Below are positions 5,922 to 28,259 of a stretch of 28,951 nucleotides of DNA, one piece after another; within the stretch, counting starts at the first letter, position 1; each line of letters starts with the position of its first letter. The stretch is from a virus. A program made the translations under genes and the position numbers. The stretch lies in the IMG/VR virus record IMGVR_UViG_3300005300_000028; one strand, written 5' to 3'. Under the pieces are notes generated by a model that saw only the letters and a list, made by a program, of their open reading frames with translations, had not been told where the DNA came from and ran no database searches.

Positions 5922-6947
5922 CTACTCAACCAATCCTTCTTCCTCAAGTTCACGGACAATTTCTTCATCTGTTCTGCCCGAACCGCTTGGGACATGCTCT
6001 TCTTCGGTTTTGAGAATTCTCGGAGCTAAATATTTAACTAATGTTTGTCTGAACTTTTTGTTTTCAACAATGATGCGTTCGCCCAACGTCAGAATTTTAT
6101 CTCCCATTTCAGCAATTAAGCGTGCATAGTCGTCCTTCCAGCCCTCTGGTGAGATTGTTCTTACCCTTGACTCTGACATCATCTCAGCCATTTTACCAAT
6201 TTGACTTTCAAGTTTGTCAAGATGTCTTCTGAGGAATTCGTTTTCAACTTGAGCTCTGATTGCTTCTGGGTCTGGTTTACTTTTGATTTCGTGAATCAAC
6301 ATGTTGTAAAATTGCTGTTGCTGTTGCATCATCTGTTGCATTATAGTAAACATCAAAGAGAAAGTATTGCCATCATTGCTCGTGTTGACTGTAATTGGTA
6401 ATTGTGGATATGAATGAGAAATGAATGAATCATGACTTGGTACAAACGTTGATATTGACCTTTTGTAGTTTTCACGAACTTTGAATACTGCAGATACAAT
6501 CCAACTTATTGCATCATCATCAGCTTTTGGAAAATTCCTACGTAATGCTTTGAATAATTCTTGTGGATTCTCTTGTAATATTGGGTTATTTCTGAAAAAC
6601 ACATTGACAAACCATTCAGTTTTTGAACCTGAACCAATGCCCGGTGTTGCATCCATTTGAGTTTTTAGTGTTGTACACATCTCTTCAAGCATCTCCTCCT
6701 CTGGGGTAAGTAACCTATTTCTAACCGGTTCATGCTGTTGAACCCTGATTTTCTCTTCTTTATCTGGTGTTGATGATGTTGAATGGTATTTTCTGAAGTG
6801 TTTTGCTATCTGATTCATTTCGCCAATCTCTTCGCCGCAAAGTTTACAAACGTATACTCTTTGACCATCGGGTTTCTCAACAAGATAAGTTTTCCTCTGT
6901 TCAGATACTATTTTGTATTCGCCATTCTCTTCATCAATCGCCATCAT
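5922..6947 (-). CDS. C2H2 Zn-finger protein with a Q-rich coiled-coil region
   Basis: YVCKLCGEEIGEMNQIAKHFRKYH; MQQMMQQQQQF tract; helical C-terminus. Confidence 0.7.
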   Translation of the reverse strand: MMAIDEENGEYKIVSEQRKTYLVEKPDGQRVYVCKLCGEEIGEMNQIAKHFRKYHSTSSTPDKEEKIRVQQHEPVRNRLLTPEEEMLEEMCTTLKTQMDATPGIGSGSKTEWFVNVFFRNNPILQENPQELFKALRRNFPKADDDAISWIVSAVFKVRENYKRSISTFVPSHDSFISHSYPQLPITVNTSNDGNTFSLMFTIMQQMMQQQQQFYNMLIHEIKSKPDPEAIRAQVENEFLRRHLDKLESQIGKMAEMMSESRVRTISPEGWKDDYARLIAEMGDKILTLGERIIVENKKFRQTLVKYLAPRILKTEEEHVPSGSGRTDEEIVRELEEEGLVE

Positions 6948-6963
6948 ATCTTATTAGATATCA

Positions 6964-6985
6964 ATGTATATAGATTTATCCCTTC
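6964..6985 (-). promoter_or_regulatory. Putative TATA box for the leaderless ZnF/Mrp/lipid transcription unit
   Basis: Minus strand GGATAAATCTATATACA about 20-25 nt upstream of the ATG at 6947; no RBS before this gene. Confidence 0.3.
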
Positions 6986-7003
6986 AACGTGTTTTGAGAT
7001 GCA

Positions 7004-7488
7004 ACGACACCGCAATATTTATTAGCCGATTTTTATTGAGTATATTAATTAATACCAAAATCCAAAAAGTTGCTACCGACATTATACTACGACACTAAAA
7101 CCTAATTTTATAAATATACGGGATAAAAAAGATTATTGATTTTTTCTTGCAAAGAAAGAATTTAAAGGATTTTCTTTACTGCGACACTACGACACTACGA
7201 CACTGTGAAGATGTAGTTTATTTTTATCTAACATTCCAAATAGTAATAATACTACGACACTACATTATAATAGTGTCGTAGTTGACGTAGTATAGAAAAG
7301 AATTCTACAGCCTCTAATTTCGAAATAAATCCACCAAATTTTTTATCTTTAGATAATATAAAAATATCCAAAAGTGTCGTAGTATTTTCCAGCATAGAAC
7401 CACCTTCTACATATAATCATAGAACCTAAATATAAATTAACGTAATGTGAAAAAGATAAATCAACTATGACGGGCATGGTGTCGTAGT
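7004..7488. repeat. Dyad-symmetric array of ACTACGACACT repeats in an AT-rich non-coding region (putative origin, iterons or centromere)
   Basis: Forward copies at 7086, 7178 (variant), 7186, 7194 and 7251; reverse copies at 7272, 7373 and 7478 (10/11); partial ACGACAC at 7004. This is the only long intergenic region in the window. Confidence 0.85.
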
Positions 7489-7496
7489 TCAAAAAA

Positions 7497-8879
7497 TCAC
7501 CACAAATCTTTTAACAGCTTACCGTTCACCATAAATGCGTCTTTTCCGATTAAGTACTGTTCTGCTCTCTTCCTGTCTTCAAAGAAGACCATTCTCCACT
7601 TTGCTCCTCTGCCTACATACTCTTTCTCTCTGACACAGAAGATTTCTTCTTTGTCAAGCATTGAAGCCAGTATATCTCTCAGCTGTTCATTGTCTATCTT
7701 TAACTTCCTTGCCAGCTCTCTTCTGCTTATCACACCACCCGACAAGTTGATTATATGCTTTATCTTCTCCTCAATGTCGGACACGAGCTTTAACGGTTGT
7801 TTCTGTTTCGGTGTTGATATCTCAACAATCATATCAAGGATTCTGGCAACAACCCAATCAAAGTAAATCAAGGCCTTGTCGAAATACTCGATGTCGTTCA
7901 CGTGATATATCGGTTCTCCAGCAATTAGTATTGGACTTAACTTAGGGTCGGCAAGTGCTTCAAGAACAGTAAGTTTAAGCAAGTGTTCCCAGCTCGAATC
8001 AAGATAACCACCGTCTTTGTTCATATACTTTTGAACACACAGCTTGTGCAGTTCTTCTGCTCGCTCGTTTATTGCGTCTCTAACTTCTGTGTCAAGTATT
8101 ACGTCGATTTTGTAGTCTGGACCGAAATTCTCTATAAACTTGTGAGCATCTATCATTTTATCAGCAATTGCTTCGCCGATTTTGACCAACTCGTCGTATA
8201 CAGTCTGCATTTTCGTGTCAAGCGGTGGAAGATACTTTGTTAAGTCTTTTGCTGAGATATTAACGAAAAACGTTCTCCTCACAAGCCCCTGGCGGACATC
8301 GTATTCTGTTAAGTATAAATCAGGGTCTTGCATACCGCAAATCATTGTGAAATACAAGCCTTTTGGTATTTTCCTTACGTTCTTTTTCCCTTGTCGTTTA
8401 CTCAAAACTTGTTTATACGTTTCACCGTAGTAAAGCTTGCTCAACATCCCTCTTGCTCCAAACATGTAACGTTGACCTTCGCTTCTTTTCAGCCAAACAC
8501 CAAATTCGTCAGAAATCAGAACGAAATCCTTGATTTTACTGCTCATTTCTTCAATGTAGTCAGCCACACCCTCAATTGTGAATTCTTCAATAAACTTGTC
8601 TTCAACGTTGATATCAATGTTTAGCGTGTCGTAATATTTCTGCCAAGCGATTTCGTAAACTGTTCTGGCATAGTCTATCACTGTTGATTTCCTTGTCAAT
8701 CCTGCTGGTCCACAAAACACAACGAACAAGTTTGGACGTAGTGGTCTCCTGCTTTCGATAACCTGAAAAAATGGTCCAAGAGTTGCTGAAATCAACCAAT
8801 AAGCCGACCCTTTGATGATAACATCTGGAGCGTCGGTATGTTCTGAAACAATCTGAAGAAAATCATCTATCCAGTTCAT
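7497..8879 (-). CDS. DUF3987/YfjI-like AAA+ putative replicative helicase with a C-terminal winged helix
   Basis: Walker A-like GPAGLTRKST, Walker B LISDEFG, arginine-finger-like QGLVRR, and a C-terminal wHTH (ISRRELARKLKIDNEQLRDILASM). Likely start 8879 (GGTGA RBS). Confidence 0.6.
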   Translation of the reverse strand: MNWIDDFLQIVSEHTDAPDVIIKGSAYWLISATLGPFFQVIESRRPLRPNLFVVFCGPAGLTRKSTVIDYARTVYEIAWQKYYDTLNIDINVEDKFIEEFTIEGVADYIEEMSSKIKDFVLISDEFGVWLKRSEGQRYMFGARGMLSKLYYGETYKQVLSKRQGKKNVRKIPKGLYFTMICGMQDPDLYLTEYDVRQGLVRRTFFVNISAKDLTKYLPPLDTKMQTVYDELVKIGEAIADKMIDAHKFIENFGPDYKIDVILDTEVRDAINERAEELHKLCVQKYMNKDGGYLDSSWEHLLKLTVLEALADPKLSPILIAGEPIYHVNDIEYFDKALIYFDWVVARILDMIVEISTPKQKQPLKLVSDIEEKIKHIINLSGGVISRRELARKLKIDNEQLRDILASMLDKEEIFCVREKEYVGRGAKWRMVFFEDRKRAEQYLIGKDAFMVNGKLLKDLW

Positions 8880-9645
8880 TCTCAATCACCTTCTTCCGCT
8901 CCAAGTAGTAAGGATACTCAACTTCTGCTCTTGACTCAGATTTTGGCAATGCTTTCAGAAGTCTCGGGTTGTCATACAAGTTGGCCCTGCAAATCAGCTG
9001 AACAACGTCAAACAGCTTTTTGCCCTGATAGAACTTGTGGACATTGTCAATCAGATAATACCACATGGTACCGTTTGCAAACTCGAATTCTCGTTTCTTG
9101 AAAATGTTTTTCACCTGTTCAAATACGTTTGTTTCACTGTAAGGCATTGAACCAGTCGTTGCCGCAATTATACTCTGTCTGACATCATCGCAAACTCTGT
9201 CAAATTTTACGTTCCCGTAGTGTCTTCTTAGGAACTCTACGATTTCTTGTTTCTTTGGCGGATAAAATCTGATAACCTCGCATCTCCTTTGAATCCAGTC
9301 AGGAATCTTCCATAACTCGTTGGCTGTTAAAACAATCGGATTCTTGCTTATCTCGAAAAGCTTCTTAACATATCTGAAATCTTCGATACCGTCAGCTTCA
9401 TCAAGTAAGATAATGCGATTCTTGAATCCTTTCATCCTTGCCACATTGTAAAGATACTCGAAATCCTCTTTTTTCCTTTCATCACTTGCGTTGAATTCAA
9501 CAACATCCCAGCCAAGTTTTTCTGCCACACAGTATACTGAGTATGTTTTACCGATACCCGGCCGTCCTACAATCAAGACTGGCTTATTTATCCTTACGAG
9601 TTCTTCTATTCTTCTGAGCTGTTCTTGATTTCCGATGAATTCCAA
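8863..9645 (-). CDS. rfcL: Replication factor C large subunit-like clamp-loader ATPase (short form)
   Basis: GRPGIGKT, VVEFNASDER, ILLDEADG, PIVLTAN and RRC; TTG start with a GAGGTGA RBS. Confidence 0.75.
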   Translation of the reverse strand: MEFIGNQEQLRRIEELVRINKPVLIVGRPGIGKTYSVYCVAEKLGWDVVEFNASDERKKEDFEYLYNVARMKGFKNRIILLDEADGIEDFRYVKKLFEISKNPIVLTANELWKIPDWIQRRCEVIRFYPPKKQEIVEFLRRHYGNVKFDRVCDDVRQSIIAATTGSMPYSETNVFEQVKNIFKKREFEFANGTMWYYLIDNVHKFYQGKKLFDVVQLICRANLYDNPRLLKALPKSESRAEVEYPYYLERKKVIENELDR

Positions 9646-9986
9646 GGTCTCACCTCCAGAACCTCAACTAAAAACTTTGCAACCGCATCGGGACAGCTTG
9701 TTGCTCCATTCGGTCTTAGTTCTGGGTGTGGACATCTGATATGTTTTAGTGTATCGACAATGGCTTCTGGGTCAACACCAGACCTTAATGCAACCGAAAT
9801 AACTCTGCCAAGAGCTTCAGCCCAAGCCCTGATACACTCCCCGGGCTTGTCTGCTGTAATGAACACCTCAAGTGGTCTTTCGTCAAACGTAACGGTTATA
9901 TACAGCTTCTTTCCGCACATCAAGCCAAATTTCCCTGTTACATTCGGTAAAGACTTTGGTCTGAGTTTGGGTCTCACAAGCTCCAT
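9606..9986 (-). CDS. Stand-alone TSCPD domain (C-terminal domain of class II ribonucleotide reductase NrdJ)
   Basis: CGKKLYITV...PLEVFI...EALGRVISVALRSGVDPEAIVDTLKHIRC...TSCPDAVAK. Confidence 0.85.
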   Translation of the reverse strand: MELVRPKLRPKSLPNVTGKFGLMCGKKLYITVTFDERPLEVFITADKPGECIRAWAEALGRVISVALRSGVDPEAIVDTLKHIRCPHPELRPNGATSCPDAVAKFLVEVLEVRPWNSSEIKNSSEE

Positions 9987-10669
9987 AACGTTACCCCCTC
10001 CTCATCAAATTCACACCTAATCTGATATTCACACCAAGAACAGTGAACACCTTTGTTTTTAGGCAGATATCCCGTTTCAATCATCCGTTTCATGCGGTTA
10101 ATCTCTTCTTCAATTTCCGGTTCAAGCTTTTTCGGGATTTCTATCACTTTGTTATCTCTGAGATAAACGAATAATATGCGATTAACTTGATATCCTGCCT
10201 TTTCAAGCAAATAACGATATATATTGCCCTGTCTTATATCATCGAGCTTTAGATACAAGAATTTCCCCGTTTTCCAATCTATAATCGTATTGTTGCCGTA
10301 GAAATCAATAATTCCGCTTAAATGGTCTGTAATCTCAATTCTCTGCTCAACAAATTTCGGCAGATATTCTTCCCATGTGTTTAGTCTCTCTGCTTCAAAT
10401 TTAATGAAATTGTTTAGGATTTTCCTTGTCTGCTGGTCACTGCCAACCTCAACACTGACTCTATTAACTAAAGCCTTGATTTCGTCTACGCTCTTTGGCT
10501 TCCCCTGAAGCCTTGTAAAGTAAAGGTAAATGATGAAGTGAATCTTTTTGCCAAATTCCGCTTCAGGATGCTCTATTTTCAGTCCTTCAATCCCTTCGCT
10601 TAGCCAGTACCATCTCTTTGGGCATTGATAGAATAAGTTCAGCTCTGATGGACTGACCACGGGAGTCAC
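9974..10669 (-). CDS. Cas4/AddB-like PD-(D/E)xK exonuclease with a four-Cys Fe-S staple
   Basis: SPSELN..QCPKRW, GKKIH, GIID...IIDWKTG, QGNIY and CSWCEYQIRC. Confidence 0.8.
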   Translation of the reverse strand: MTPVVSPSELNLFYQCPKRWYWLSEGIEGLKIEHPEAEFGKKIHFIIYLYFTRLQGKPKSVDEIKALVNRVSVEVGSDQQTRKILNNFIKFEAERLNTWEEYLPKFVEQRIEITDHLSGIIDFYGNNTIIDWKTGKFLYLKLDDIRQGNIYRYLLEKAGYQVNRILFVYLRDNKVIEIPKKLEPEIEEEINRMKRMIETGYLPKNKGVHCSWCEYQIRCEFDEEGVTLWSL

Positions 10670-11601
10670 CCCGGAACGTGTTTAATGACCCAGCAGTAAG
10701 CTAAGAACCCGATAAGCTGAATCAATGGCGAAGCACCAACAGTACACCGATACTCGAACTCTGCAAGCTTCTCGTATAACTTAATCTTGATTTTCTCGTC
10801 TTCAAGTGTGTCAAGGAACCTGTAGATTTCGTTCACGATTGTGGTGTGGTCTTTGCCCGACATCAGGTAGGCGTCTTCAATTATCTTTTTTGCTTCAACG
10901 AAATTACCGTTCAGAGCCTGTTTTATAGCATTCCTGACCAGATTTAAATCAAGCTCAAGCATCACGCTCTCTTTGGTTATTGTCTTGTGGTTACTGATTA
11001 TTCGCTCCAGCAAGTTTATTGCATACCTCATATCGCCATTTGCTTGCTCAGCAATCATCATCAGTGCTCTCTTGACTTCTTCAGTCATTTCAACCTGAAT
11101 CCCTTCAGCCTTAATGATTTCTAAGATTCTTTTCAAAATCAACTTCTTGTCGATTGGCTTAAACACGAATCGAGCACATCTTGACTTGATTGGTGAAATC
11201 AGCTTGTATTCATAGTTACAGCTCAGAATAAACGTTGTCTCTCCCGATTTTTCCATTATTCGCCTTAAAGCGTGCTGTGCATCTTCAGTTAAAGCATCAG
11301 CTTCATCAAGAAAAACTATGCGTCTTCCTTTGCTCTGTGCCAGTCTCTTGATTTTATTTCTGACCACATCAATTCCTCTTTCATCGCTTGCATTCAGTTC
11401 AACAAAGTGGTTCTGCCATTCATCACCAAACAACTCTCTGGCTATACACATTGCAACAGTGGTTTTCCCTGTTCCCGCCTGACCCACGAACAGCAGATGT
11501 GGTAGCTCTCCTCTTCTAATCAGGTTCTTAATTGCGTTAATCACTTCGTCCTGTCCTACAACCTCATCAAGTGTTTTCGGTCTGTACTTCTCAACCAGCA
11601 T
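10666..11601 (-). CDS. rfcS: Replication factor C small subunit
   Basis: VEKYRPKTLDEVVGQ, GQAGTGKT, ELNASDERGIDVVR, DEADALT..AQHALRR and SRC; ATG at 11601 with a GGAGGTG RBS. Confidence 0.92.
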   Translation of the reverse strand: MLVEKYRPKTLDEVVGQDEVINAIKNLIRRGELPHLLFVGQAGTGKTTVAMCIARELFGDEWQNHFVELNASDERGIDVVRNKIKRLAQSKGRRIVFLDEADALTEDAQHALRRIMEKSGETTFILSCNYEYKLISPIKSRCARFVFKPIDKKLILKRILEIIKAEGIQVEMTEEVKRALMMIAEQANGDMRYAINLLERIISNHKTITKESVMLELDLNLVRNAIKQALNGNFVEAKKIIEDAYLMSGKDHTTIVNEIYRFLDTLEDEKIKIKLYEKLAEFEYRCTVGASPLIQLIGFLAYCWVIKHVPG

Positions 11602-12562: not shown

Positions 12563-14413
12563 TCACCTCAGCCTGAACAAACCACGACCCTCAATCTCGT
12601 TCCAACTGATATTGGCAATCTCGAGCAATTTCTCAACTTTGCTTCTCACAACAACTTCAATCATCTTGTCATAGTCTATGATGATTTCTGGGAGCTTCAT
12701 GTCGTCAGTAAAGGCTATAACGTCGGTTTTGGGATAGCCTTTGACTCCCTTAACGTATAGAACCTTGATTTTGTCTCCTTTATCAAATCTTGTCCCGAGA
12801 TAGCGATTGCTGTACATTGCGGCTCTGATATGATAAGGTATTCCGCTGTTCACACCGTAAGAAGCCAAGCTTTTCTGAATTCCAATATTTACAGCCAAGT
12901 CAGAAGGCGATACTCTATCATCTCTGATTTTCTTAACGATATCACGTAGGTAGTTTATTATTTCGTCTCGTTTTCCATCCAGAATCATTTCAATGACTTT
13001 TAGCTGAATGTCTTTCGTTATCTCTGCCGAATCCGTTCTTCTGATTTCAAGACCTTTTACATCTATGTAATTCGCTTCTCTGCCTTTCTCCCACACGACA
13101 CGACCGGCATACCTCTTTTTGGTTTCAGGAAGCAATATAATCGGATTAAACACTTTTTCAAATTCCATCTTGAAATAATGTTCTTTGCCAATCAGTTCAT
13201 CAAAGCTTTTTGTTACTTCTTTAGCCAACTGTTCCCCAGTCTTTACACATTCCTCTAAACTGTACTCATCAGGAAGCTTAACGAAAATGCTGTCTGTATC
13301 CCCGTAAACAACCTGAAAACCTCTTTCTTCAAATTGTTTCTTAGCCCACAGTAATCCTTCCCTTGCTTTCTGTGTTACAAGTTCTGCGTTGTCTTTATCG
13401 TATATTCTGCTCCGTTCGTAGCCAATGTAACCGTAAACAGCGTTCAGAAGTTCTTTAGTTACTTGTCGCATATTATACACTTCTTGATACTTATCAGAAC
13501 CGGGTTCGAGTTTTTTCAGTTCTTCATCGAACCTGTTACGCTGTTCGGTGATGAATTTAACCATATCAAGAACCAGACCACAACCGTCTGGAGAAATCTC
13601 GAATGTTAGTAGTATGCTCGGGTAGTATTTACTCATGTCAAAGACAAGAACGTTTTTGTGAAGTCCACCAACTGGGTCAAACACTATCGCTCCTTGATAC
13701 CATTCTCCCGTTGCTTCACGTTTACTTGGAAGCACTACATTTCGTTCTTTAGCCAATCTGAGCAACACTATATCGAGCAGAACCGAAAAATAGAAGCAGT
13801 CGTTTATGTCAGGAGCACCAACGTATTCTTTGAGCGTTATGTAGAAGTCAATGATTTTGTGTTTGTCTTCAATGAGTTTCAGCAGTTCTACATCGTGTTT
13901 GTTGTAAAATATGATTTGTTCAGGGTCATTCTGATACAAGTGCGGTATATCTACTGCTAAAATCGTTTTTCCGTCAAAACCTTCTTTTACGGCAACATAG
14001 CTTAAACTCTTGCTTCTCGGCTTGAATATCCTCGAGTAAGCTGTCATTAGGTCAAAGATTTGAACGTCGGCAAAAACGTCTTTCATGTTGAACTGTTTCA
14101 TCCTGTTTCGCAGATAATTAACGTCAAAATCAACGTTCCAGCCAACGATTAGGTCAGGGTCAAGAATCTTGAGTATTCTGGCAAAAGTGTTCAGCATTTC
14201 AAGTTCGCTTGAGTGGTACAGAATTATGTGGTTATCGATAATTTTGCTTGATTTTGTGTATTTGCTGTGATAAAAAAGAGTTATGTATTTGTCTTCATAG
14301 TTGTCATAGTTGTCGTAAATCGTGATGCTGATTACTGGTTGTTCGGCTTTCTCAGGGGTTGGAAATCTTGTTCCGTCGTGAAGAACCTCGATATCAAGGA
14401 AACACGTTCTCAT
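12563..14413 (-). CDS. polB: Family B DNA polymerase (exonuclease and polymerase domains; N-terminal domain missing)
   Basis: ExoI DIE, ExoII WNVDFD, ExoIII YNKHD; motif A DMSKYYPS, motif B KELLNAVYGY, motif C YGDTDS, and KKRYAG. Confidence 0.95.
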   Translation of the reverse strand: MRTCFLDIEVLHDGTRFPTPEKAEQPVISITIYDNYDNYEDKYITLFYHSKYTKSSKIIDNHIILYHSSELEMLNTFARILKILDPDLIVGWNVDFDVNYLRNRMKQFNMKDVFADVQIFDLMTAYSRIFKPRSKSLSYVAVKEGFDGKTILAVDIPHLYQNDPEQIIFYNKHDVELLKLIEDKHKIIDFYITLKEYVGAPDINDCFYFSVLLDIVLLRLAKERNVVLPSKREATGEWYQGAIVFDPVGGLHKNVLVFDMSKYYPSILLTFEISPDGCGLVLDMVKFITEQRNRFDEELKKLEPGSDKYQEVYNMRQVTKELLNAVYGYIGYERSRIYDKDNAELVTQKAREGLLWAKKQFEERGFQVVYGDTDSIFVKLPDEYSLEECVKTGEQLAKEVTKSFDELIGKEHYFKMEFEKVFNPIILLPETKKRYAGRVVWEKGREANYIDVKGLEIRRTDSAEITKDIQLKVIEMILDGKRDEIINYLRDIVKKIRDDRVSPSDLAVNIGIQKSLASYGVNSGIPYHIRAAMYSNRYLGTRFDKGDKIKVLYVKGVKGYPKTDVIAFTDDMKLPEIIIDYDKMIEVVVRSKVEKLLEIANISWNEIEGRGLFRLR

Positions 14414-14444
14414 AGTTCGCTCCCTCCAGTATAGTCACTGTCTC

Positions 14445-14762
14445 TTAACTTAGTTCAATCCAGTTAGTGAGTCTCTCTAATAGCTCGTTGTGGAGTATTT
14501 TCATCAATGTGAAGGTGTGCACTAAGAATTCGAGTTCGTATTCAGTAGTTTCTGAAAGTGGTAGTTTCACCGGTTTTGTTTTATATACTACTTTGTGTGT
14601 GTTGCTGTCGTCGTCGAATCTGTACTCTATACTACCGTATCTGAACTTGACCTCGACCTCCTCAGAGATTTTCTCTACTGGGTCTCTAATTCTCTCAAAC
14701 AGCTCGTTTATTTCCTTAACAAGTTCTGCTTTCTCCACCTTCACCACCTCCGGCATACACAT
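14445..14762 (-). CDS. Hypothetical protein between the two PolB parts
   Basis: ORF with a GGAGGTG RBS near its start; the true start may be a GTG slightly downstream. Confidence 0.65.
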   Translation of the reverse strand: MCMPEVVKVEKAELVKEINELFERIRDPVEKISEEVEVKFRYGSIEYRFDDDSNTHKVVYKTKPVKLPLSETTEYELEFLVHTFTLMKILHNELLERLTNWIELS

Positions 14763-14880
14763 ATTTCTTACTCCTTACTTTCCACAACCACCTAACACCA
14801 CATTCGCAGTGGTGAACATGACTTCCATTAGGATTTAACGGTAAAGGGATATCTTTACCGCAACGACAAACCCACGTCAT
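14716..14880 (-). CDS. Small Cys/His-rich protein, 54 aa (MTWVCRCGKDIPLPLNPNGSHVHHCECGVRWLWK...), missed by the ORF track
   Basis: ATG overlaps the TGA of the upstream gene (ATGA); CxC...HHCxC pattern. Confidence 0.55.
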   Translation of the reverse strand: MTWVCRCGKDIPLPLNPNGSHVHHCECGVRWLWKVRSKKYVYAGGGEGGESRTC

Positions 14881-15233
14881 ACTGGTCTTACCCCTTTCCA
14901 GCTATTACTTCCATCCCACTCAAACCAAGCCCTGATTCCCGTGTCTATCAAGAATCTAACAACATAGGGAATGTCGGCTTCGTAATCATCGGGATTTCTG
15001 AGCTTAGGCACATTCCCGGGATGGTCTACGTAGATTTTGTAGACCTCTTCGCCTTTGTTTGTCTTGAATCCTTTCTCAACCTTCACTACGTGCTCAGAGT
15101 CAGGGATTGTCTTGCTGTAGTAATACGGATAGAAGTCTTCAATTACTATTCTGTGCTTTTTCCCTTGTTCATCTCTCGCAAATAAGATTATCTTCCGTCC
15201 ATCCGCCTTGATATTAACCAACTTCAACCTCAT
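14877..15233 (-). CDS. Free-standing N-terminal (uracil-recognition) domain of archaeal PolB
   Basis: DFYPYYY, DHPGNVPKLR and YEADIPYVVRFLIDTGI match the archaeal PolB NTD motifs (F.PYFY, HP..VP..R, EyDIPF..RyLID). Confidence 0.8.
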   Translation of the reverse strand: MRLKLVNIKADGRKIILFARDEQGKKHRIVIEDFYPYYYSKTIPDSEHVVKVEKGFKTNKGEEVYKIYVDHPGNVPKLRNPDDYEADIPYVVRFLIDTGIRAWFEWDGSNSWKGVRPV

Positions 15234-16228
15234 CACCAATCACACTCCTTTCCGAGACAGTAACCTAATGACCGTAATTTTCTACAGCTGTAAGGCTTTA
15301 AACAACCATTATAAACCTTCTGTGCAAGGTGATTAACGTGATATCTCGTTATTTTCTCGTTAAAGTCAACCCAACCAAGCTGTTTGTAAATTTCAACAAT
15401 CTCATCAACCGTAAAGCCATGTAGCAAATCAATAGTTGCCGCAGTCCTGATTTCGTGTGGTGGCTCTTCTTGGATTATTTGCTTGTAAAGACAAGGTCGC
15501 AAAACAAGCTTTAGCAATCTATTGTCTACATACTTTGATGTAGAGCTTTCAGATTGGACAGTCTGCGGTGTTAAGGCAAAATCGTAATAAGCATCCGTTG
15601 TTTCGAACTGGTCTACCGTTATAGTGCGTTTTATCTGATATTCGTACTCGTGGGGCTCTTTTATGTGGTTTAAAAACTCATCAAGACTCATATAGCTGAA
15701 ATCAGGTGGTAAATACGTGCAGTAGGTTTTACATTCAATTCTCATCGTGTTCGGGATTCTTGTCATTCGTCTCAAATCGCCAATAACCCTTGTGTCGAAA
15801 ATAGACCGTTTATAACCGTTTTTCTCAACATAGAACTTCCCTTCATCTATAATCGTAAACGCAACTTTCCTTATTGTTGCGATTGCCTCATCAAGTTGTT
15901 TAAACCGTTTAGGCTTAAACAAAACGTAGAAATGAAAACCTTTCTTGCCAGAAGCGACGGGAACACAGCTTAAGTTAAGTTCTTCAGTTACAAACTCATA
16001 AAATCGCCAAGCAGTTTTGATATCGAGATAATCAAGGTCAAAGAAGATTTTATCAATGCGATAACTTAAATCATAAACAGACACAAAACAGTCCCGAATC
16101 CCGTTATTTTGATTTACAAACCTCAAAAACTCCTGATAACCTCTAATAACCTTTCTATATGGGTTCCCAACCTCTCTAAAAAATGGAGAAAATAAAACTC
16201 TTATCATCTCTGACCCTCTTGCGTTCAT
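15233..16228 (-). CDS. Archaeo-eukaryotic primase: PriS catalytic domain fused to a PriL-CTD-like Cys domain
   Basis: FFDLD (DxD), SGKKGFH and D..RMTRIPNT; C-terminal RPC...PPHEIR...DFNEKITRYHV...YSC..L..LGYC. Confidence 0.8.
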   Translation of the reverse strand: MNARGSEMIRVLFSPFFREVGNPYRKVIRGYQEFLRFVNQNNGIRDCFVSVYDLSYRIDKIFFDLDYLDIKTAWRFYEFVTEELNLSCVPVASGKKGFHFYVLFKPKRFKQLDEAIATIRKVAFTIIDEGKFYVEKNGYKRSIFDTRVIGDLRRMTRIPNTMRIECKTYCTYLPPDFSYMSLDEFLNHIKEPHEYEYQIKRTITVDQFETTDAYYDFALTPQTVQSESSTSKYVDNRLLKLVLRPCLYKQIIQEEPPHEIRTAATIDLLHGFTVDEIVEIYKQLGWVDFNEKITRYHVNHLAQKVYNGCLKPYSCRKLRSLGYCLGKECDW

Positions 16229-20180: not shown

Positions 20181-22130
20181 TCACCTCACTATTTTGTTAA
20201 TCACGAGATTAAACAACCGTTTCGGCAATTGTTCTATATCCACCACTTCTTCCCACGTCCATTCAGGACCGAACACTCGTCTCATGATTGTCTCTGAAAC
20301 TTCTACATCAATGAACAGCGTGTACACATTAATCCCTGACCTTCTTGCTCTTTCTATTGCTTCTCTTGTCCACTCAAAGAGTATATCGCTCGGATAGCGT
20401 CCGTTTTCAGGTGCCCCATCTGTTATCAGTACAATCATTTTTCTCTGTGCCGTTGATTTGTTAAGCAAGTTTACTGCATAATGAACTGCCGCCCATGTTG
20501 GTGTATAGTTATCTGGAAAAACACTGCAAATCTCCTCTACAGTTTTTAGTTCTCTCAAGTACACTGGATTACCTCCTTTCTCGCAACTGAACGCTATGAC
20601 TCTCATGCTCACGTTTTTGACTTTCTGTAACGCTAAGAACAGCGTTGCACACGCAGACGATGCTATACTGATTTTATCTCCTTCCATTGAACTGCTTGCA
20701 TCAAGAAGAATTACGATATCAAATCCTGTATCTATTTCTTCATTTTCGAATGGGAGTCCGTTTTTGGTTACTTTGTGTTTTATAGTTTCATCGATATCGA
20801 AGTCTAACCCAGTGATGTCGTTGTCAACTCTCATTTTGTTCTTAATTTTGTTAAGTACTTTCGCAATTCTGTCAGCTAAGACAGTATCTGGTTTCGAGTG
20901 TGGCCGAGAGTAGAATTGAATATCGCTACTTGTTCTTACAAATATGTTCTTTTTCTCAAAGTTATTAGGATTTATACTTTTGATTTTCTTCAGTTTCTTC
21001 TCAATTTCTTTCAACATCTTTAGCCCTTCAAGTTCGGCTTCTCCCAAAATCTCTTTGACGGGTTTCTCGAATATACTTTCGTCAATGTCGTTATGATTTG
21101 TAATACTTTCATATTCAGTTTTAGGTAATGATTTGACGCTATCAGGTAAAATAGATTCGAGTTCTTTAGAATCGATATACTCTGACAGCTTTTTTTCTGT
21201 TACTTCTTCTTGGTTCTCTTCCCCTGTCTCTTCTTTTTCTTGATTCTCCTTTTCTGTCTCTTCTTCTTCTTGGTTCTTTTCTCCTGTTCCTTGGTTATTC
21301 TCTCCTCTTTCTTCTTTCTCTCCTGTCTCTTCTTGTTCATCCCTTTGACGTTTTCCATGTTCATTTCCTCTTTCGCTCCCTTGTTCATTTTTAGTGTCTT
21401 CTTCTTGTCCTCCCTCACGCTCTCTTATTTCTTTCGTCACTGTTACTCTTATTTCACTTACTTCTTCTACTTCATCTTGCGTGTCTGATTCACTTCCAAC
21501 TACGACATATACATTACGTTTAAAGTACTTCTCAAGGAGTTTCAATGTCTCCACAGTTGCTACAATACTTGCCTTCCATGACTTCCCCTCGACAGTTTTT
21601 AGTATTTTCAAGAACTCTCTGCAAACCTCCTTGAGCTCTGGGTCACTGATTTCGTTCAAAACATCTGGGTCGCAACGGACAGCATTTAGAATGTCAACTA
21701 TGTGGTCACTGATTATCAGGTCTTTTGCAACAGCCTTTAGTTGCTCTTCTCTGACAACCTTAGAACCACGGTAGAACTTGTTCCACATCCAGTCTACTCG
21801 GTAGTCCTCGATGATATTTAAGAGGTATCTGATGATAATAGATAAGTATGTGTAAGATTCCACGTTTATCTCTTTTCTAATTATGTCTACTGCCTTATCC
21901 ATGTCAGGAGTTTTAAAAACCACATGAGAAATCTCGTGTTCGAACCTCCTATAGTAAAATTTCCAAGGTTCATTACTGTACCTTGGCATTAGAATCTCTG
22001 CACTCTTCTCTTTAATTTCTACTGCAGGTCTATCTACGTCGGTAAACTTTAGCGATACGTATTTTCCACTCAAATGCTCAAAAATTTTCTTTGTCTTGTG
22101 TAAAACTGACCTCTCTATTGACTTCATCAC
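20181..22130 (-). CDS. vWA-domain protein (CobT/NorD-like MoxR partner) with an N-terminal HExxH domain and an acidic linker
   Basis: FEHEISH...NIIEDYRVD, E-rich repeats (EETGEENQE), and MIDAS motifs DASSSM, TPT and ITDG. Confidence 0.85.
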   Translation of the reverse strand: MMKSIERSVLHKTKKIFEHLSGKYVSLKFTDVDRPAVEIKEKSAEILMPRYSNEPWKFYYRRFEHEISHVVFKTPDMDKAVDIIRKEINVESYTYLSIIIRYLLNIIEDYRVDWMWNKFYRGSKVVREEQLKAVAKDLIISDHIVDILNAVRCDPDVLNEISDPELKEVCREFLKILKTVEGKSWKASIVATVETLKLLEKYFKRNVYVVVGSESDTQDEVEEVSEIRVTVTKEIREREGGQEEDTKNEQGSERGNEHGKRQRDEQEETGEKEERGENNQGTGEKNQEEEETEKENQEKEETGEENQEEVTEKKLSEYIDSKELESILPDSVKSLPKTEYESITNHNDIDESIFEKPVKEILGEAELEGLKMLKEIEKKLKKIKSINPNNFEKKNIFVRTSSDIQFYSRPHSKPDTVLADRIAKVLNKIKNKMRVDNDITGLDFDIDETIKHKVTKNGLPFENEEIDTGFDIVILLDASSSMEGDKISIASSACATLFLALQKVKNVSMRVIAFSCEKGGNPVYLRELKTVEEICSVFPDNYTPTWAAVHYAVNLLNKSTAQRKMIVLITDGAPENGRYPSDILFEWTREAIERARRSGINVYTLFIDVEVSETIMRRVFGPEWTWEEVVDIEQLPKRLFNLVINKIVR

Positions 22131-23281
22131 TTCACCTCTACACCGAATATCGAGTAAATTCTTTGAGCAACTGTCTTCTTCTCGTTCTTATCTTCGTAGC
22201 GGTTGACAACCGTGTTCCTCAATGCCATTTTCAGTGCATTCATGTCATCAAGAACGCTTCTGTAGCTGTTGTAGACCTGAGCGAATATTGCTAAGTCTCT
22301 TGTACTCAAAGCATAACTGAGGTCACCTGCGGCATATCCATTTCTGGTTTCAATTGCCAGTGTGATTAACAACTTTCTCAGGTCTTGGTCGAGGTCACTG
22401 ATTTTCTCCAGAATTCTTGACTCCTCATCTTCTAACGGATAATCAATGTAAACTTCTGCAAATCTTGACCTCAAGTCCTCATTGAGTTCATGAACACCAC
22501 CGTAGTACGATGGGTTCATTGTACCGACTATCAAGAGTTTACAACCGTTTTCGAGTCTGTAAATCTTGCCAATCTCTGGTATGTAGACGTGTCTTCGCCA
22601 GTCCAATAGCTGATTGAGCACTTTCTGCATTTGTGGTGTCAGAGCATTAAGTTCCTCGAAAACGAGAATCGCTTTTCCGTACTGGTTCGCCACTGTGATT
22701 GCCACTGGCATTACTCCGAGCTCATATACAACCTCATCACCGACTAACAAGAACCTGCCTACCAAGTCCTGCCTCTTGGTGTTCTCTGAGCAATCGAATT
22801 GAATAATTGGTATGTTGTGCTTTGCGGCAAATGCGGCAATACTCAAGGTTTTTCCGACTCCTTTTGGACCGACAAGCAAGAGTGGAATTCCGCTCTCCAT
22901 GTGAGCTTTGAAAAGCTGTTCTTCGTAGTCTCGTGGTACGTATTCGGGAACACTCTTTGGTAGATAGTCTTCAGCTTTCACTGGTAGAATCTTGATTCCG
23001 TTACTGGCTTTTTCCTCTGGTCTTACGAAGTTGTTAATTGTTTTCTGAGGTATAGTTGCCTGAACCGGAAGTGCCATGTCTCTGTAAATTGTTACTGTTT
23101 TATTGGTTAGGCTCACTTCAACTTTGTACCCCATTTCCTTGAGTTTTTTCCCGACAGTTAGGAGGACGGTGTTGTCGTTTTCTTCCCTGTAGTTGTAGCC
23201 TCTAAATTGCTTGAGCAACTCACGACACTCACTCAACCCTAAAACAGTAACTTTTTCATCTACTAAGTTTTTCCATTCCAT
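22127..23281 (-). CDS. MoxR/CbbQ/NirQ-family AAA+ ATPase
   Basis: GPKGVGKT, DLVG, Walker B variant FEELN, and TMNPSYYGGVHELNEDLRSRF. Confidence 0.88.
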   Translation of the reverse strand: MEWKNLVDEKVTVLGLSECRELLKQFRGYNYREENDNTVLLTVGKKLKEMGYKVEVSLTNKTVTIYRDMALPVQATIPQKTINNFVRPEEKASNGIKILPVKAEDYLPKSVPEYVPRDYEEQLFKAHMESGIPLLLVGPKGVGKTLSIAAFAAKHNIPIIQFDCSENTKRQDLVGRFLLVGDEVVYELGVMPVAITVANQYGKAILVFEELNALTPQMQKVLNQLLDWRRHVYIPEIGKIYRLENGCKLLIVGTMNPSYYGGVHELNEDLRSRFAEVYIDYPLEDEESRILEKISDLDQDLRKLLITLAIETRNGYAAGDLSYALSTRDLAIFAQVYNSYRSVLDDMNALKMALRNTVVNRYEDKNEKKTVAQRIYSIFGVEVK

Positions 23282-23639: not shown

Positions 23640-24350
23640 TTAAATTTGCACTAAGAAGAATTTAAATTGCAACTGTTTCAGCTCTTCTTCTGACAACACT
23701 GTTCCTTCTGGAAGTCTCTGTAATAGCTGAAATACTATCAGCCTGTCGCCTTTCTTGAGCTTTATCTCTTTCCTCTCTGCTTTGACCTCAGTTCCGAGCA
23801 GTTGCGAAAGTATTTTCGCTGTTGACTCGTGTCCAATAGCACTCTCTACTTCTTCATTAGCGATGATTTGCTTCACCGTATCAACATCAACTACTTTGAT
23901 GCTTATTGTTGCTTCTTCTGTTTCGAGCATGTTCAAGCTGAACGCATTAGCAATGTATGTTTTGCTTGTTTTCTTGTTCTTCTCACGTTCAAAGATTTCA
24001 GCTATCTCTTTGATTGCTCTGATTCTATCTGATTTCGTGTCAAAACTTCCAACGTAGAGCTGTTCAATTTTCTCAGCTGTAACCCTAACCAAAGCGATTC
24101 CTGTCGATGGGTGCTTCGTTGAGCCACTCGCAAATGTTGCAACAACGAACGCCCCAACATGGACTTTGTCATCAATCCATGCTGGGTCTCCTGTCACCCG
24201 AAGAAATCTTCCTTCGAATGCAAACCCATTCTCCTTGCTTACATCGACACGTTCGAGCTCTTTTGCCCAAACTGTTCTTTTGGCCTTGCGTGGTCTCCCT
24301 AAATCAAGGTCTCCTTTCTCAAGTATTACTACATTTCCATCCACCAACAT
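23640..24350 (-). CDS. acrIII-1: Fusion protein: unknown ~129-aa N-terminal domain plus C-terminal DUF1874/AcrIII-1 ring nuclease (about 23640-23963)
   Basis: YIANAFSLNML, SAIGHESTA (catalytic His), ERKEIKL..GD and QRLPEG.VL match STIV B116/SIRV1 gp29. No internal ATG at the domain boundary; likely start 24350. Confidence 0.88.
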   Translation of the reverse strand: MLVDGNVVILEKGDLDLGRPRKAKRTVWAKELERVDVSKENGFAFEGRFLRVTGDPAWIDDKVHVGAFVVATFASGSTKHPSTGIALVRVTAEKIEQLYVGSFDTKSDRIRAIKEIAEIFEREKNKKTSKTYIANAFSLNMLETEEATISIKVVDVDTVKQIIANEEVESAIGHESTAKILSQLLGTEVKAERKEIKLKKGDRLIVFQLLQRLPEGTVLSEEELKQLQFKFFLVQI

Positions 24351-24351
24351 C

Positions 24352-24786
24352 TTACTCACCCCCTAAATAATAAAATGTAACAAAATACGAGTCATAAACT
24401 CTTGTTATCTTCATAGCCCATTTCAGATTCTCAACTCTGACTTCAAAAGTCTTGAATCCATCGTGAACCCCGTATTCTTTAACTGTGGTCTTGGCATCTT
24501 CGTTCACGATTAACTTGCTATCTGTGTTTCTGGTTTCGTCAGGTTCAACAAGATTGAACCTCCACTCGTTGTCAGCTCTGACATAGTCAATCCCCAACAT
24601 TCCGTCCTTTGCGTTCTCCTCAACAAGTCTCAGAAGTTTTTCTGCCTTCTCAAAGTCCATCTTTTTGACTCTCGGCATTCTTTTGAAGAAGTTACTAACT
24701 TCCCTATATGCTCTCTCTCTTCTCATCCTCACTTCTCTCCTGAAAGACTCCAACTCAAAACCAGTTTTTTCCATCCCTGTTTTCAT
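24352..24786 (-). CDS. Hypothetical protein, first gene behind a BRE-TATA promoter
   Basis: ATG at 24786 with a GAGGTGAG RBS. Confidence 0.65.
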   Translation of the reverse strand: MKTGMEKTGFELESFRREVRMRRERAYREVSNFFKRMPRVKKMDFEKAEKLLRLVEENAKDGMLGIDYVRADNEWRFNLVEPDETRNTDSKLIVNEDAKTTVKEYGVHDGFKTFEVRVENLKWAMKITRVYDSYFVTFYYLGGE

Positions 24787-24821: not shown

Positions 24822-24853
24822 TATAAACCTTTCGGTTGTCAAAAAGGTTTATA
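24822..24853. promoter_or_regulatory. BRE-TATA promoter (minus strand CGAAAGGTTTATATA) paired with an inverted copy (plus strand AAAGGTTTATAAA)
   Basis: 11-bp inverted repeat TATAAACCTTT (24822-24832) / AAAGGTTTATA (24843-24853); same core as the repeats at 28886-28924. Confidence 0.7.
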
Positions 24854-26519
24854 AATTGGATAATAGAGTTCTTTGCACTTTCTTTTTACCTTTCTTCTTC
24901 TCGAGGTGCTCCATTTTATTTCTGTTGAACTCAGAAGAATACTCTCTTATCATGGACTCGTACTTCTTGGCGAACTTCCTTGCAATTTCGAAAGGTGCTG
25001 AAGATATATACTGAATCACTTGAGGATAAGTATCGAGCCTATATTCTGACTTCCTTTTTCCATTATTGACATATTCCTTTATTTTTTTGTCAAGCGAAGA
25101 CAGTAGCTCGACAAACGATAACTTAGGTTTTGGTTCTGGCTCATCACTTTTCTTGAACACGAACACGAAATCGTAAGGCATTGGGTCTTTCTGCTCTACA
25201 TGGAACGAAATTTTGTAGTTGTAAACCGGTTGACGTAATACGTCTACGTGTTTGAAACCGGCTCTCCTTAGTGCCAAGACGAAAGCCGCCATGACATTCA
25301 TGTCTCCAATGTTGAACGTCGATATAAGGTGACCTCCATGTTTCAACACTCTGAAACACTCTCTGAAAACCTGATATAGTCCGTCTTCATATTCTCTAAG
25401 CCCAATTCTTCTTGTGCTGTTGATAGAAATCTCTGTTTTTGGTGCAGACAGGCCAAGCCAGACTAAGTAGAAATCTGAGAGTTCGGCATACTGTATAATG
25501 TCGCCATAAGGTGGGTCTGTTATAACTGCGTCTACACTTTCATCAGGAATGAAAGATAAGTCTCTTGAGTCAGCTTGAACCACCATGTAACTTGCGTCTT
25601 TTTGCAACTGGCTGAAGTCAGAAGCCTCTTTGGCATAACTACCGATTTTACTGTTGGTGTATGTCTTGCCTCTGATTACTTTGTCTACTCTCCTGCAGAA
25701 AACTTCCCACAAGTTGTTCTCTGTATAGTCTTTAGCAACCCAGTATGTGTTGAGTGTCCAGTCCATTAATTTAGTTTCACCTCCTTTGAGATGTTTGGAC
25801 ATTTTTGAAGACCATTCGAGCATTGAACTGAATGTGAACATCATGAAATCCCTGATTTTGTCGTCTTGAATTTGTGTGATTGCGTCTCTGATATGACTTA
25901 ACATTATCAGACTCCTTGGACTTATAAGCTCATGGAAATATCTGAAACCTTTCTGAATTAGTCTGTTTGTCGTGTCTCCTTCCGGTATTTGAACAACAGG
26001 GTACCACTTAGGTGGAATGTCAGGAACTTTTTCGAACTCCTCTAAACCTGATTCAAGGAAAATCTTTGAGTTACAACTTTTACAGTATATAAAAGCTAAG
26101 AACGGTCTATCATCAGCCAAATATCTTCTGATGTACCTGACCATAGTATTAGAACCACACTCTGGGCATTTGGTTCCGTATAGTTCCCATGCGAGTGGCT
26201 CTAACTGAGTTTTTAGTTGGTTGAACACCTCCCGATATGCGTAAATGTTCAACGGTTCAACTTCTTTTTTCATAACCATGCACGCAAGAGGGTTCAGGTC
26301 AACAGCAACAACTTTCCTCCTCAGGATAAGACCTTCAATCAGTGTAGTACCACCGCCAGCAAATGGGTCTAAAATTATGTCTCCGGGTTCTGTGAACACT
26401 TGAATTATTTTACTGAACACTTTCCATGGCCTCCGAGCCCAGTACTTGTGCATAAAGTAGACAGGAGTATACGCTGTTGTCTCTAAAATACCTAACCCCA
26501 ACATATTACTAGTAACCAT
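24849..26519 (-). CDS. Amino (N6-A or N4-C) DNA methyltransferase with an internal Zn ribbon (COG1743-like)
   Basis: HKYWARRP, motif I DPFAGGGT, CPEC...CKSC and motif IV TDPPY. Likely start 26519 or 26504; the track extension to 26654 overlaps the upstream gene. Confidence 0.88.
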   Translation of the reverse strand: MVTSNMLGLGILETTAYTPVYFMHKYWARRPWKVFSKIIQVFTEPGDIILDPFAGGGTTLIEGLILRRKVVAVDLNPLACMVMKKEVEPLNIYAYREVFNQLKTQLEPLAWELYGTKCPECGSNTMVRYIRRYLADDRPFLAFIYCKSCNSKIFLESGLEEFEKVPDIPPKWYPVVQIPEGDTTNRLIQKGFRYFHELISPRSLIMLSHIRDAITQIQDDKIRDFMMFTFSSMLEWSSKMSKHLKGGETKLMDWTLNTYWVAKDYTENNLWEVFCRRVDKVIRGKTYTNSKIGSYAKEASDFSQLQKDASYMVVQADSRDLSFIPDESVDAVITDPPYGDIIQYAELSDFYLVWLGLSAPKTEISINSTRRIGLREYEDGLYQVFRECFRVLKHGGHLISTFNIGDMNVMAAFVLALRRAGFKHVDVLRQPVYNYKISFHVEQKDPMPYDFVFVFKKSDEPEPKPKLSFVELLSSLDKKIKEYVNNGKRKSEYRLDTYPQVIQYISSAPFEIARKFAKKYESMIREYSSEFNRNKMEHLEKKKGKKKVQRTLLSNL

Positions 26520-26559
26520 ATTACTACATAAAAACTTTTTGTAGAAAAAATGTAAAGAA

Positions 26560-26817
26560 TTACTTAAAGTAAATCCTCCACTGCACACCAAACAGCTCAA
26601 ACTCTGGTTTCCTGACCTCCAAGAACCATTGCATCGACAGTCTCCTGCCATCACTTGGTTTCAGTTTAAAAACGACTCTGTCTTCTGTCCTTTCAAGAAC
26701 TCTGTCTATCTCCATTCTCTCCCTTCTCAGCCTCCTTGATATTCCATAGATTGTCTCATCACTGACCCAATCAGGTAAGTTCATCAGTGCTAAAGACACA
26801 AAGTCAAAGTTTACCAT
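26560..26817 (-). CDS. Small hypothetical protein
   Basis: GAGGTG RBS before the ATG at 26817. Confidence 0.6.
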   Translation of the reverse strand: MVNFDFVSLALMNLPDWVSDETIYGISRRLRRERMEIDRVLERTEDRVVFKLKPSDGRRLSMQWFLEVRKPEFELFGVQWRIYFK

Positions 26818-27702: not shown

Positions 27703-28044
27703 TTACATTACTTCACCAACAACAGGTTCGACCACCAAAAACTTGTACGGTAGCTGTTTCAACTCCTCTTCTGTCAGGATTTTCCCCTCAGGAAGCCTTT
27801 GCATAAGTTGGAAGACAATGAGTTTGTCGCCGTACTCTATCTTCACCTCAGTTCTGTTCATTGGAACCTCAACTCCAAGCAACTGGCTTAACAACTTTGC
27901 TGTGGCCTCATGACCAACGGCACTCACGAACCCTTTAGATATCATCCTCTTTATCCACTTAATGTCCTCTGGATATATCAAAATCAATTCTCTCTCATGC
28001 CTCAGCATATTTAAGCTAAATGAATTAGAGATGTACACTGTCAT
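27703..28044 (-). CDS. acrIII-1: Stand-alone DUF1874/AcrIII-1 ring nuclease (anti-CRISPR, type III)
   Basis: YISNSFSLNML, SAVGHEATA, NRTEVKI..GD and QRLPEGKIL; ATG at 28044 with a GGAGGTGAGGAGA RBS. Confidence 0.92.
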   Translation of the reverse strand: MTVYISNSFSLNMLRHERELILIYPEDIKWIKRMISKGFVSAVGHEATAKLLSQLLGVEVPMNRTEVKIEYGDKLIVFQLMQRLPEGKILTEEELKQLPYKFLVVEPVVGEVM

Positions 28045-28049
28045 TCTCC

Positions 28050-28259
28050 TCACCTCCTCCCCGCAAGACAGTAAAACAGTTCGTCAATCTCTTTTACAAG
28101 TTCTTGATAACACTCCGACATGTCAGACTCTGACAGTTCTTTAAGGTCTCTTCTTATTTGTTCAAGTCTCTTTATAAGTTCTGTTAGCTCTTCAATTCTT
28201 CTTCTGGCTATGTATATTTTTTCGTCAATTCTTCTCTCAATCAGCCATGCCAAGTACAT
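28050..28259 (-). CDS. Small coiled-coil hypothetical protein
   Basis: Heptad pattern and GGTGAG RBS. Confidence 0.6.
   Translation of the reverse strand: MYLAWLIERRIDEKIYIARRRIEELTELIKRLEQIRRDLKELSESDMSECYQELVKEIDELFYCLAGRR

Follow-up and report, generated by a model that had tools for sequence, protein, structure and literature searches.

The 28,951-nucleotide IMG/VR virus record IMGVR_UViG_3300005300_000028, called the window here, belongs to an uncultivated archaeal virus or plasmid whose replicative B-family DNA polymerase (PolB) is encoded by two genes. The polymerase is a genuine two-gene enzyme whose N-terminal domain (NTD) is detached and strongly conserved, and the arrangement is maintained across a clade of related elements. 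The small protein of 118–120 amino acids (aa) would supply the first NTD segment, and the 616-aa protein (the core) the exonuclease, the second NTD segment and the polymerase domains. Taking the account as a whole, we consider it likely that the window encodes a two-subunit PolB translated from separate starts and assembled non-covalently, that the split arose once, that the space between the two halves is a slot for gene cassettes, and that the enzyme probably retains read-ahead sensing of deaminated template bases.

Organization of the polymerase locus

All genes in this part of the window lie on the minus strand and are ordered, 5' to 3', as a primase-like gene, the NTD open reading frame (ORF), orf54, orf105, the PolB core, an ERCC4-HhH nuclease and an RFC small-subunit homologue, with PCNA-like and AAA_24 ATPase genes (recognized by Pfam) upstream in the same gene neighbourhood. 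This agrees with an earlier note on this DNA, which had described a separate NTD about 460 bp upstream of the core with two small ORFs in between. The features of the locus are as follows.

15233–16228, minus strand: archaeo-eukaryotic primase-like gene, directly upstream of the NTD gene
14877–15239, minus strand: stand-alone PolB NTD gene, 120 aa from the TTG at 15239, more likely 118 aa from the ATG at 15233
14716–14880, minus strand: orf54, a small CxC...CxC zinc-ribbon protein, from the ORF, the family alignment and the junction comparison
14445–14762, minus strand: orf105, a 105-aa ORFan with no family match
14406–14742, minus strand: variable slot between the polymerase halves, 337 bp, from DNA comparison with the related locus L009
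14421–14427, minus strand: GGAGGGA Shine-Dalgarno-like motif, 7 nt upstream of the PolB ATG (14413), read from the sequence
12563–14413, minus strand: PolB core gene, 616 aa, with Exo I–III, the second NTD segment (about residues 188–231), palm, fingers and thumb

Upstream of the core, the ATG of the NTD and the stop codon of the primase have one base in common (TGATG), and the start of orf54 overlaps the stop of the NTD (ATGA). The GGAGGGA motif before the PolB ATG suggests that translation of the core subunit starts independently. The two halves would be translated separately, the NTD by coupling of its start to the primase stop and the core from its own GGAGGGA ribosome-binding site. The neighbourhood of primase and NTD is kept in relatives, where the primase was found just upstream or within about 1 kb wherever upstream DNA was readable.

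Two genes for one polymerase

The N-terminus of the core, MRTCFLDIEV, is ExoI, with the start six residues before the motif. The core matches the Pfam family DNA_pol_B_exo1 only from profile position 67 on (E 1e-17) and DNA_pol_B over the full profile (E 8e-49). The exonuclease motifs FLDIE (D7, E9), NVDFD (N93, F96, D97) and YNKHD (Y170, D174) are invariant in the family alignment, as are polymerase motif A (DxxSLYPS; D259..Y264 P265), motif B (KxxxNSxYG; K320..N324..G328), motif C (YGDTDS; D372 T373 D374) and the KKRY motif (K432 K433 R434 Y435). Both the Pfam matches and the motif alignment confirm the earlier reading that the 616-aa PolB begins directly at ExoI; the NTD is not part of this polypeptide and is encoded by a separate ORF 460 bp upstream.

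That the upstream ORF is the missing domain, as had also been proposed, is borne out by sequence and predicted structure. It has no match in Pfam, aligns to residues ~8–126 of KOD/Tgo/9°N PolB (phmmer, E 4e-5) and ends at the NTD boundary (...SWKGVRPV). Its AlphaFold2 (AF2) model has a pLDDT of 97.7, and the PDB matches of the model are B-family polymerase N-terminal domains only (Foldseek E 1e-5, TMq 0.55–0.73).

Predicted assembly of the two subunits

Modelling the NTD together with PolB, which the earlier note had proposed as a check, predicted docking, with an ipSAE of 0.89 in all three runs and 0.00 for the best control; 58 of 80 solved complexes pass the ipSAE mark, compared to 2 of 110 mismatched pairs. 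The runs had at least 97% of their contacts in common, and partner pLDDT was 92. The predicted interface on the core comprises residues 196–231 together with patches at 85–88, 116–118, 276–280 and 336–337. Core residues 196–231 align to KOD/Tgo ~335–371 (query 188 corresponding to chain 327 and query 212 to chain 352), which we take from the Tgo structure to be the second, non-contiguous segment of the NTD. The model supports binding in which the small subunit completes a domain whose other part remains in the core. The small subunit would pack non-covalently on core residues ~196–231 and rebuild the canonical fold. A point against this interpretation is that the pass of the complex model may reflect single-chain PolB structures in its training data.

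Intein-mediated splicing as the means of joining the halves was rejected, as there was no Hint or intein match in Pfam and neither ORF has extra sequence; PolB homology accounts fully for both ORFs, leaving no room for intein halves. Rfam searches (E <= 1) detected no intron or ribozyme between the halves, and one chance-level small RNA match fell inside PolB. The enzyme would form with neither an intein nor an intron involved.

Conservation and origin of the split

The same architecture was recovered from several sets of assemblies. A protein search returned eight stand-alone NTD homologues of 119–139 aa (52–96% identity) from JGI, ENA and Logan assemblies, and a metagenome scan with the NTD yielded 23 loci, mapped by tblastn, of which 14 hold the NTD at 46–98% identity. 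All related loci with readable sequence carried a stand-alone NTD gene, and in every readable locus among the 14 the ORF stops at the same boundary, before any Exo domain, the break lying in the linker after a conserved ...SWKxVKPV. The spacing of the NTD and core genes ranges from 0.46 kb in the window and L010 to 5.2 kb in L009, 5.6 kb in L022 and more than 6 kb in L013, L014 and L019. In loci L023–L029, with NTD identities of 35–38%, a single reading frame covers both parts, as in an ordinary fused gene. The cores follow the same pattern: the nine closest (42–100% identity) are all without an NTD, 614–652 aa long and start at ExoI, and nearly all full-length homologues at or below 40% identity bear the NTD and are about 730–770 aa or longer. 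NTD-like proteins of 127–147 aa that end at this boundary were also numerous in a profile search of 1.84 billion representatives. The earlier note had asked whether relatives would expose the split as an assembly artefact; with the same architecture in independent contigs and fused genes only in more distant forms, the split is genuine.

Substitution patterns indicate that the detached domain is under strong constraint. Between the window and L009, the nonsynonymous (dN) and synonymous (dS) divergences of the NTD were 0.010 and 0.466, compared to 0.037 and 0.557 for the first 266 codons of the core; between the window and L011, the NTD had a dN of 0.025 and a dS of 0.780. The dN/dS ratio of the NTD is about 0.02–0.03, and in the comparison with L009 it was 0.02 for the NTD versus 0.07 for the N-terminal 266 codons of the core. 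The NTD is a working gene, constrained at least as strongly as the compared stretch of the core.

In a FastTree phylogeny of 93 PolBs, the nine sequences of the window's group and the NTD-less P0034, P0039 and P0042 formed one clade (SH-like support 96) whose sister comprised 29 fused forms of about 730–773 aa. We suggest that the break, which lies in the linker before ExoI, has a single origin in the ancestor of this clade of metagenomic elements and was retained from then on. This is tempered by the tree itself, which was built with FastTree only and without an outgroup, so that "one origin" means one side of a branch. The P0013 core (618 aa) and L019 were both recorded on 61,086-base contigs. 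A separate NTD-less pair, P0096/P0108 (650 aa), whose proteins begin at ExoI as do P0034, P0039 and P0042, branches apart from the window's clade, and P0096 and the stand-alone NTD P0188 (134 aa) were both recorded on 18,019-base contigs, which suggests a second lineage or origin of the same split architecture.

A scan of IMG/VR with the core returned only distant PolBs (25–31% identity), and a scan of genome contigs only distant homologues in archaeal metagenome-assembled genomes (37% identity or less), the latter with no clue to the host. An IMG/VR match to the NTD, L001, was spurious and consisted of the word KLVNIKADG inside a structural protein.

Uracil pocket and role of the detached domain

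In Pfu PolB, the uracil pocket has Y7 as its lid, P36/Y37 as its base and walls at 90–97 and 111–116, with an R119/D123 hydrogen-bond network and V93 as the key residue, and uracil recognition is general among archaeal PolBs (PMC2241895). We located the equivalent positions by HMMER alignment to KOD/Tgo/9°N and by alignment of nine NTD family members. The base is kept as P38/Y39 (P36/Y37 in Pfu), invariant in all nine. Wall 89–97 is kept as H73 P74 G75 N76 V77 P78 K79 L80 R81 (HPGNVPKLR), invariant or nearly so, with the V93 position (V77 in the window) occupied by V in eight family members and by I in one. Wall 111–116, kept as E87 A88 D89 I90 P91 Y92 (EADIPY), and the hydrogen-bond network, kept as R95 (R119) and D99 (D123), are family-invariant.

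The earlier note had described this pocket as apparently intact, and the motifs it quoted are present as FYPYYY, HPGNVPKLR and YEADIPY. Its description stands for the base, both walls and R119/D123, but not for the lid or the inter-wall loop: there is no Y7 lid, the aligned position being N9 in the window and N, H or K across the family, and the loop is eight residues shorter than in KOD. Both differences weigh against a functional pocket, as does the precedent of Pol delta and Pol epsilon, which lack uracil recognition despite retaining the PY base, the walls and R119/D123 (PMC2241895), so sequence conservation alone cannot establish read-ahead. It is possible that an aromatic residue is supplied from elsewhere. 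Because most of the archaeal pocket is kept in the small subunit, the holoenzyme would probably continue to stall in front of uracil or hypoxanthine in the template, a prediction from sequence that we place slightly above an even chance.

The NTD may alternatively be an obligate structural subunit that shapes the template channel and stabilises the exonuclease, with uracil sensing lost and the pocket residues kept for the fold or the interface. The missing lid and the shortened loop fit this alternative, as does the retention of similar residues by Pol delta and Pol epsilon without uracil recognition (PMC2241895), and the invariant residues 83–91, 93–94 and 97–99 fall in the predicted core interface, where conservation could be structural. 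We nevertheless regard a purely structural role as somewhat unlikely, because both walls, HPGNVPKLR and YEADIPY, are nearer to the Pfu/KOD consensus than the eukaryotic HPQDVPAIR and YEYDIPF are, the same holds for the V93 equivalent, and the lineage is of archaeal type, in which PolBs generally recognise uracil (PMC2241895).

A further suggestion of the earlier note was that separating the domain could make uracil read-ahead optional or stoichiometrically tunable. In such a scheme the core would operate either with the NTD or alone, according to expression level or infection stage. The two genes do have separate translation starts, and in relatives they are separated by many genes over 5 to more than 6 kb, so that the amounts of the two proteins could differ. 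We find tunability improbable, since stronger purifying selection on the NTD (a dN/dS below that of the core) and an NTD gene in every readable related locus favour a constant subunit; on the structural model, the second NTD segment of the core would also expose a hydrophobic face without its partner, and the second NTD-less lineage, too, seems to have a stand-alone NTD on the contig that carries its core. A misassembly, frameshifted pseudogene or sequencing error that broke a normal single gene is conceivable a priori for any metagenome contig, but is extremely improbable here given the same architecture in JGI, ENA, Logan and GenBank assemblies at 46–98% identity, the intact genes that separate the halves over 460 bp to more than 6 kb, the strong purifying selection, and a core with its own ribosome-binding site and start codon.

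A variable slot between the polymerase halves

DNA comparison with L009 revealed that 337 bp of the window (14742–14406) replace 5,072 bp (L009 521–5592), with about 89% nucleotide identity in both flanks. The L009 cassette contains genes for DUF2284, a short thymidylate-synthase-like protein, an unknown 383-aa protein, two radical SAM/SPASM proteins and DUF1599/phrog_1485, and a similar cassette lies 3' of the NTD gene in L012, L013, L014, L019 and L022. Thymidylate-synthase-like genes were found in L009, L013, L014 and L019, genes for pyridoxal-phosphate (PLP)-dependent and radical SAM enzymes in several loci, and a DegT-type PLP enzyme in the cassettes of L019 and L022; a 5-hydroxymethyldeoxyuridine (5-hmdU) DNA kinase (5-HMUDK, PF18723, E 8e-54) was recognised only in L022. 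These gene types are those of the toolkit for phage thymidine hypermodification (PMC8989533). No aGPT-Pplase or AADT homologue was recognised in the cassettes, and no hypermodification genes were found in the window. By family matches, the hypermodification-type cassettes lie as follows.

L009: 525–5588
L012: 6479–7585
L013: 6383–7549 and 11159–11806
L014: 4052–8668
L019: 6447–12360
L022: 5031–10574

The slot after the NTD gene behaves as a hot spot for cargo or gene cassettes. A cassette is present in the deepest relative (L022, 46% NTD identity) as well as in the close L009 and L012, so the simplest reading is that the cassette-bearing state is the older, ancestral one and that the window's lineage lost it. 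Most relatives carry a thymidine-hypermodification-type cassette between the halves, and orf105 would have taken its place in the window's lineage.

Other cargo was detected in the slot of two loci. In L013, the slot also holds IS110-like transposase, HNH endonuclease and serine-resolvase genes (7811–8707, 9043–9366 and 10495–11142), and in L011 it holds a RAMP-superfamily gene (6801–7655).

The earlier note had supposed that the two intervening ORFs may be polymerase accessory subunits, which the distribution of these genes does not support. Outside the window we found orf105 only in L010, the window's 98%-identical twin; it fills the exact slot of the L009 cassette. It had no Pfam match at E < 0.01 (a chance-level match to ComGG reached E 0.044) and no PHROG or Atlas match. 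We also considered orf105 as a diverged cassette gene and rejected this, as it does not resemble the DUF1599 genes located before the core in L009 and L022. The second ORF, orf54, belongs to a conserved family of about 45 aa with an invariant CxC...CxC and a KIRSKKYVYAG tail, for which the protein database held one further called homologue only. In the window, its last ~8 codons lie in the non-homologous replacement DNA past the junction at 14743, and it overlaps orf105 by 47 nt; compared to L009, it has a dN of 0.169 and a dS of 1.17. It usually lies between the NTD gene and DUF2284, but in L013 it is found upstream of the NTD gene, at a distance of about 4.5 kb, and no evidence connects it with the polymerase.

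The most interesting by-product of this comparison is the recurrent placement of a hypermodification-type cassette exactly between the polymerase halves of the relatives. Similar genes make up the phage thymidine hypermodification clusters of SP10, PhiW-14, ViI and M6 (PMC5889632, PMC8989533), whereas the relatives' cassette sits in archaeal-type elements and includes DUF2284, and the window is without it. Thymidine-hypermodification-type gene sets therefore circulate in archaeal-type mobile elements beside the replicase, while the papers describe bacterial viruses only. A bolder reading ties the detachment of the template-base-sensing domain to genome chemistry: a thymidine-hypermodification island would have given rise to the split, which would be maintained around it, making the split an adaptive and recurrent architecture and not a neutral accident. 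Recurrence is suggested by at least two lineages that the PolB tree separates, together with dozens of stand-alone NTD-like proteins (127–147 aa), though we hold this reading to be improbable. If it were true, a free sensor subunit would check templates for unmodified uracil during replication of 5-hmdU-derived DNA, and the sensor could be exchanged or tuned as the base chemistry changes.

Comparison with known polymerases

Single-chain archaeal PolBs (Pfu, Tgo, KOD, 9°N and the P. calidifontis PolB 5MDN) have the same fold and motifs in both parts, and the pocket base, walls and R119/D123 network are common to them and to the window's enzyme. In contrast to these polymerases, residues ~1–130 here form a separate polypeptide in which the Tyr7 lid is absent and the wall loop is eight residues shorter.

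The breaks in the PolBs of Methanobacteriales and Nanoarchaeum equitans lie within the polymerase domain, and N. equitans joins its PolB halves by a split intein. These split PolBs (Kelman et al. 1999 for Methanobacteriales, Choi et al. 2006 for N. equitans; reviewed in PMC4104785) have breaks linked to intein insertion or excision in the PolB3 gene (PMC4104785). They resemble the polymerase described here in being archaeal-type PolBs from two genes that must assemble, the genes being non-adjacent in N. equitans; they differ in that here the break is at the NTD/Exo linker, there are no intein parts, and the small piece is only about 120 aa. The DNA polymerase of PhiKZ and the chimalliviruses (gp82 and gp50) is likewise a viral B-family enzyme of two subunits from separate genes, which are stably associated (PMC13648687). 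The PhiKZ split lies inside a palm-domain insertion, with the NTD, Exo and part of the palm in the N-terminal subunit (PMC13648687), whereas here the NTD alone is detached.

In the literature that we searched, natural B-family splits are intein-linked or lie in a palm insertion (Methanobacteriales, N. equitans, PhiKZ), and we found no description of a natural PolB split at the NTD/Exo linker in open-access literature. With its clean break between NTD and Exo, this enzyme would lend itself to testing what the NTD contributes, simply by adding or leaving out one subunit. The NTD might serve in read-ahead sensing of deaminated bases, in guiding the template strand or in stability, and the question is relevant to engineered PCR enzymes, in which the pocket is routinely disabled.

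Other genes on the contig

Several further genes were recognised elsewhere in the window. Two STIV B116-like (DUF1874) domains are encoded at 23640–24359 and 27703–28053 (minus strand), one of them fused to an N-terminal extension. A Cas4-like PD-(D/E)xK nuclease gene lies at 9974–10669 and a stand-alone TSCPD domain at 9606–9986, and a MoxR AAA+ plus VWA pair and a 601-aa DNA methyltransferase are encoded at 20181–23281 and 24849–26654, respectively. A second, divergent RFC/AAA+ gene (8863–9645, minus strand; also L010 11598–12128) lies downstream of the RFC small-subunit homologue and possibly encodes the large clamp-loader subunit.

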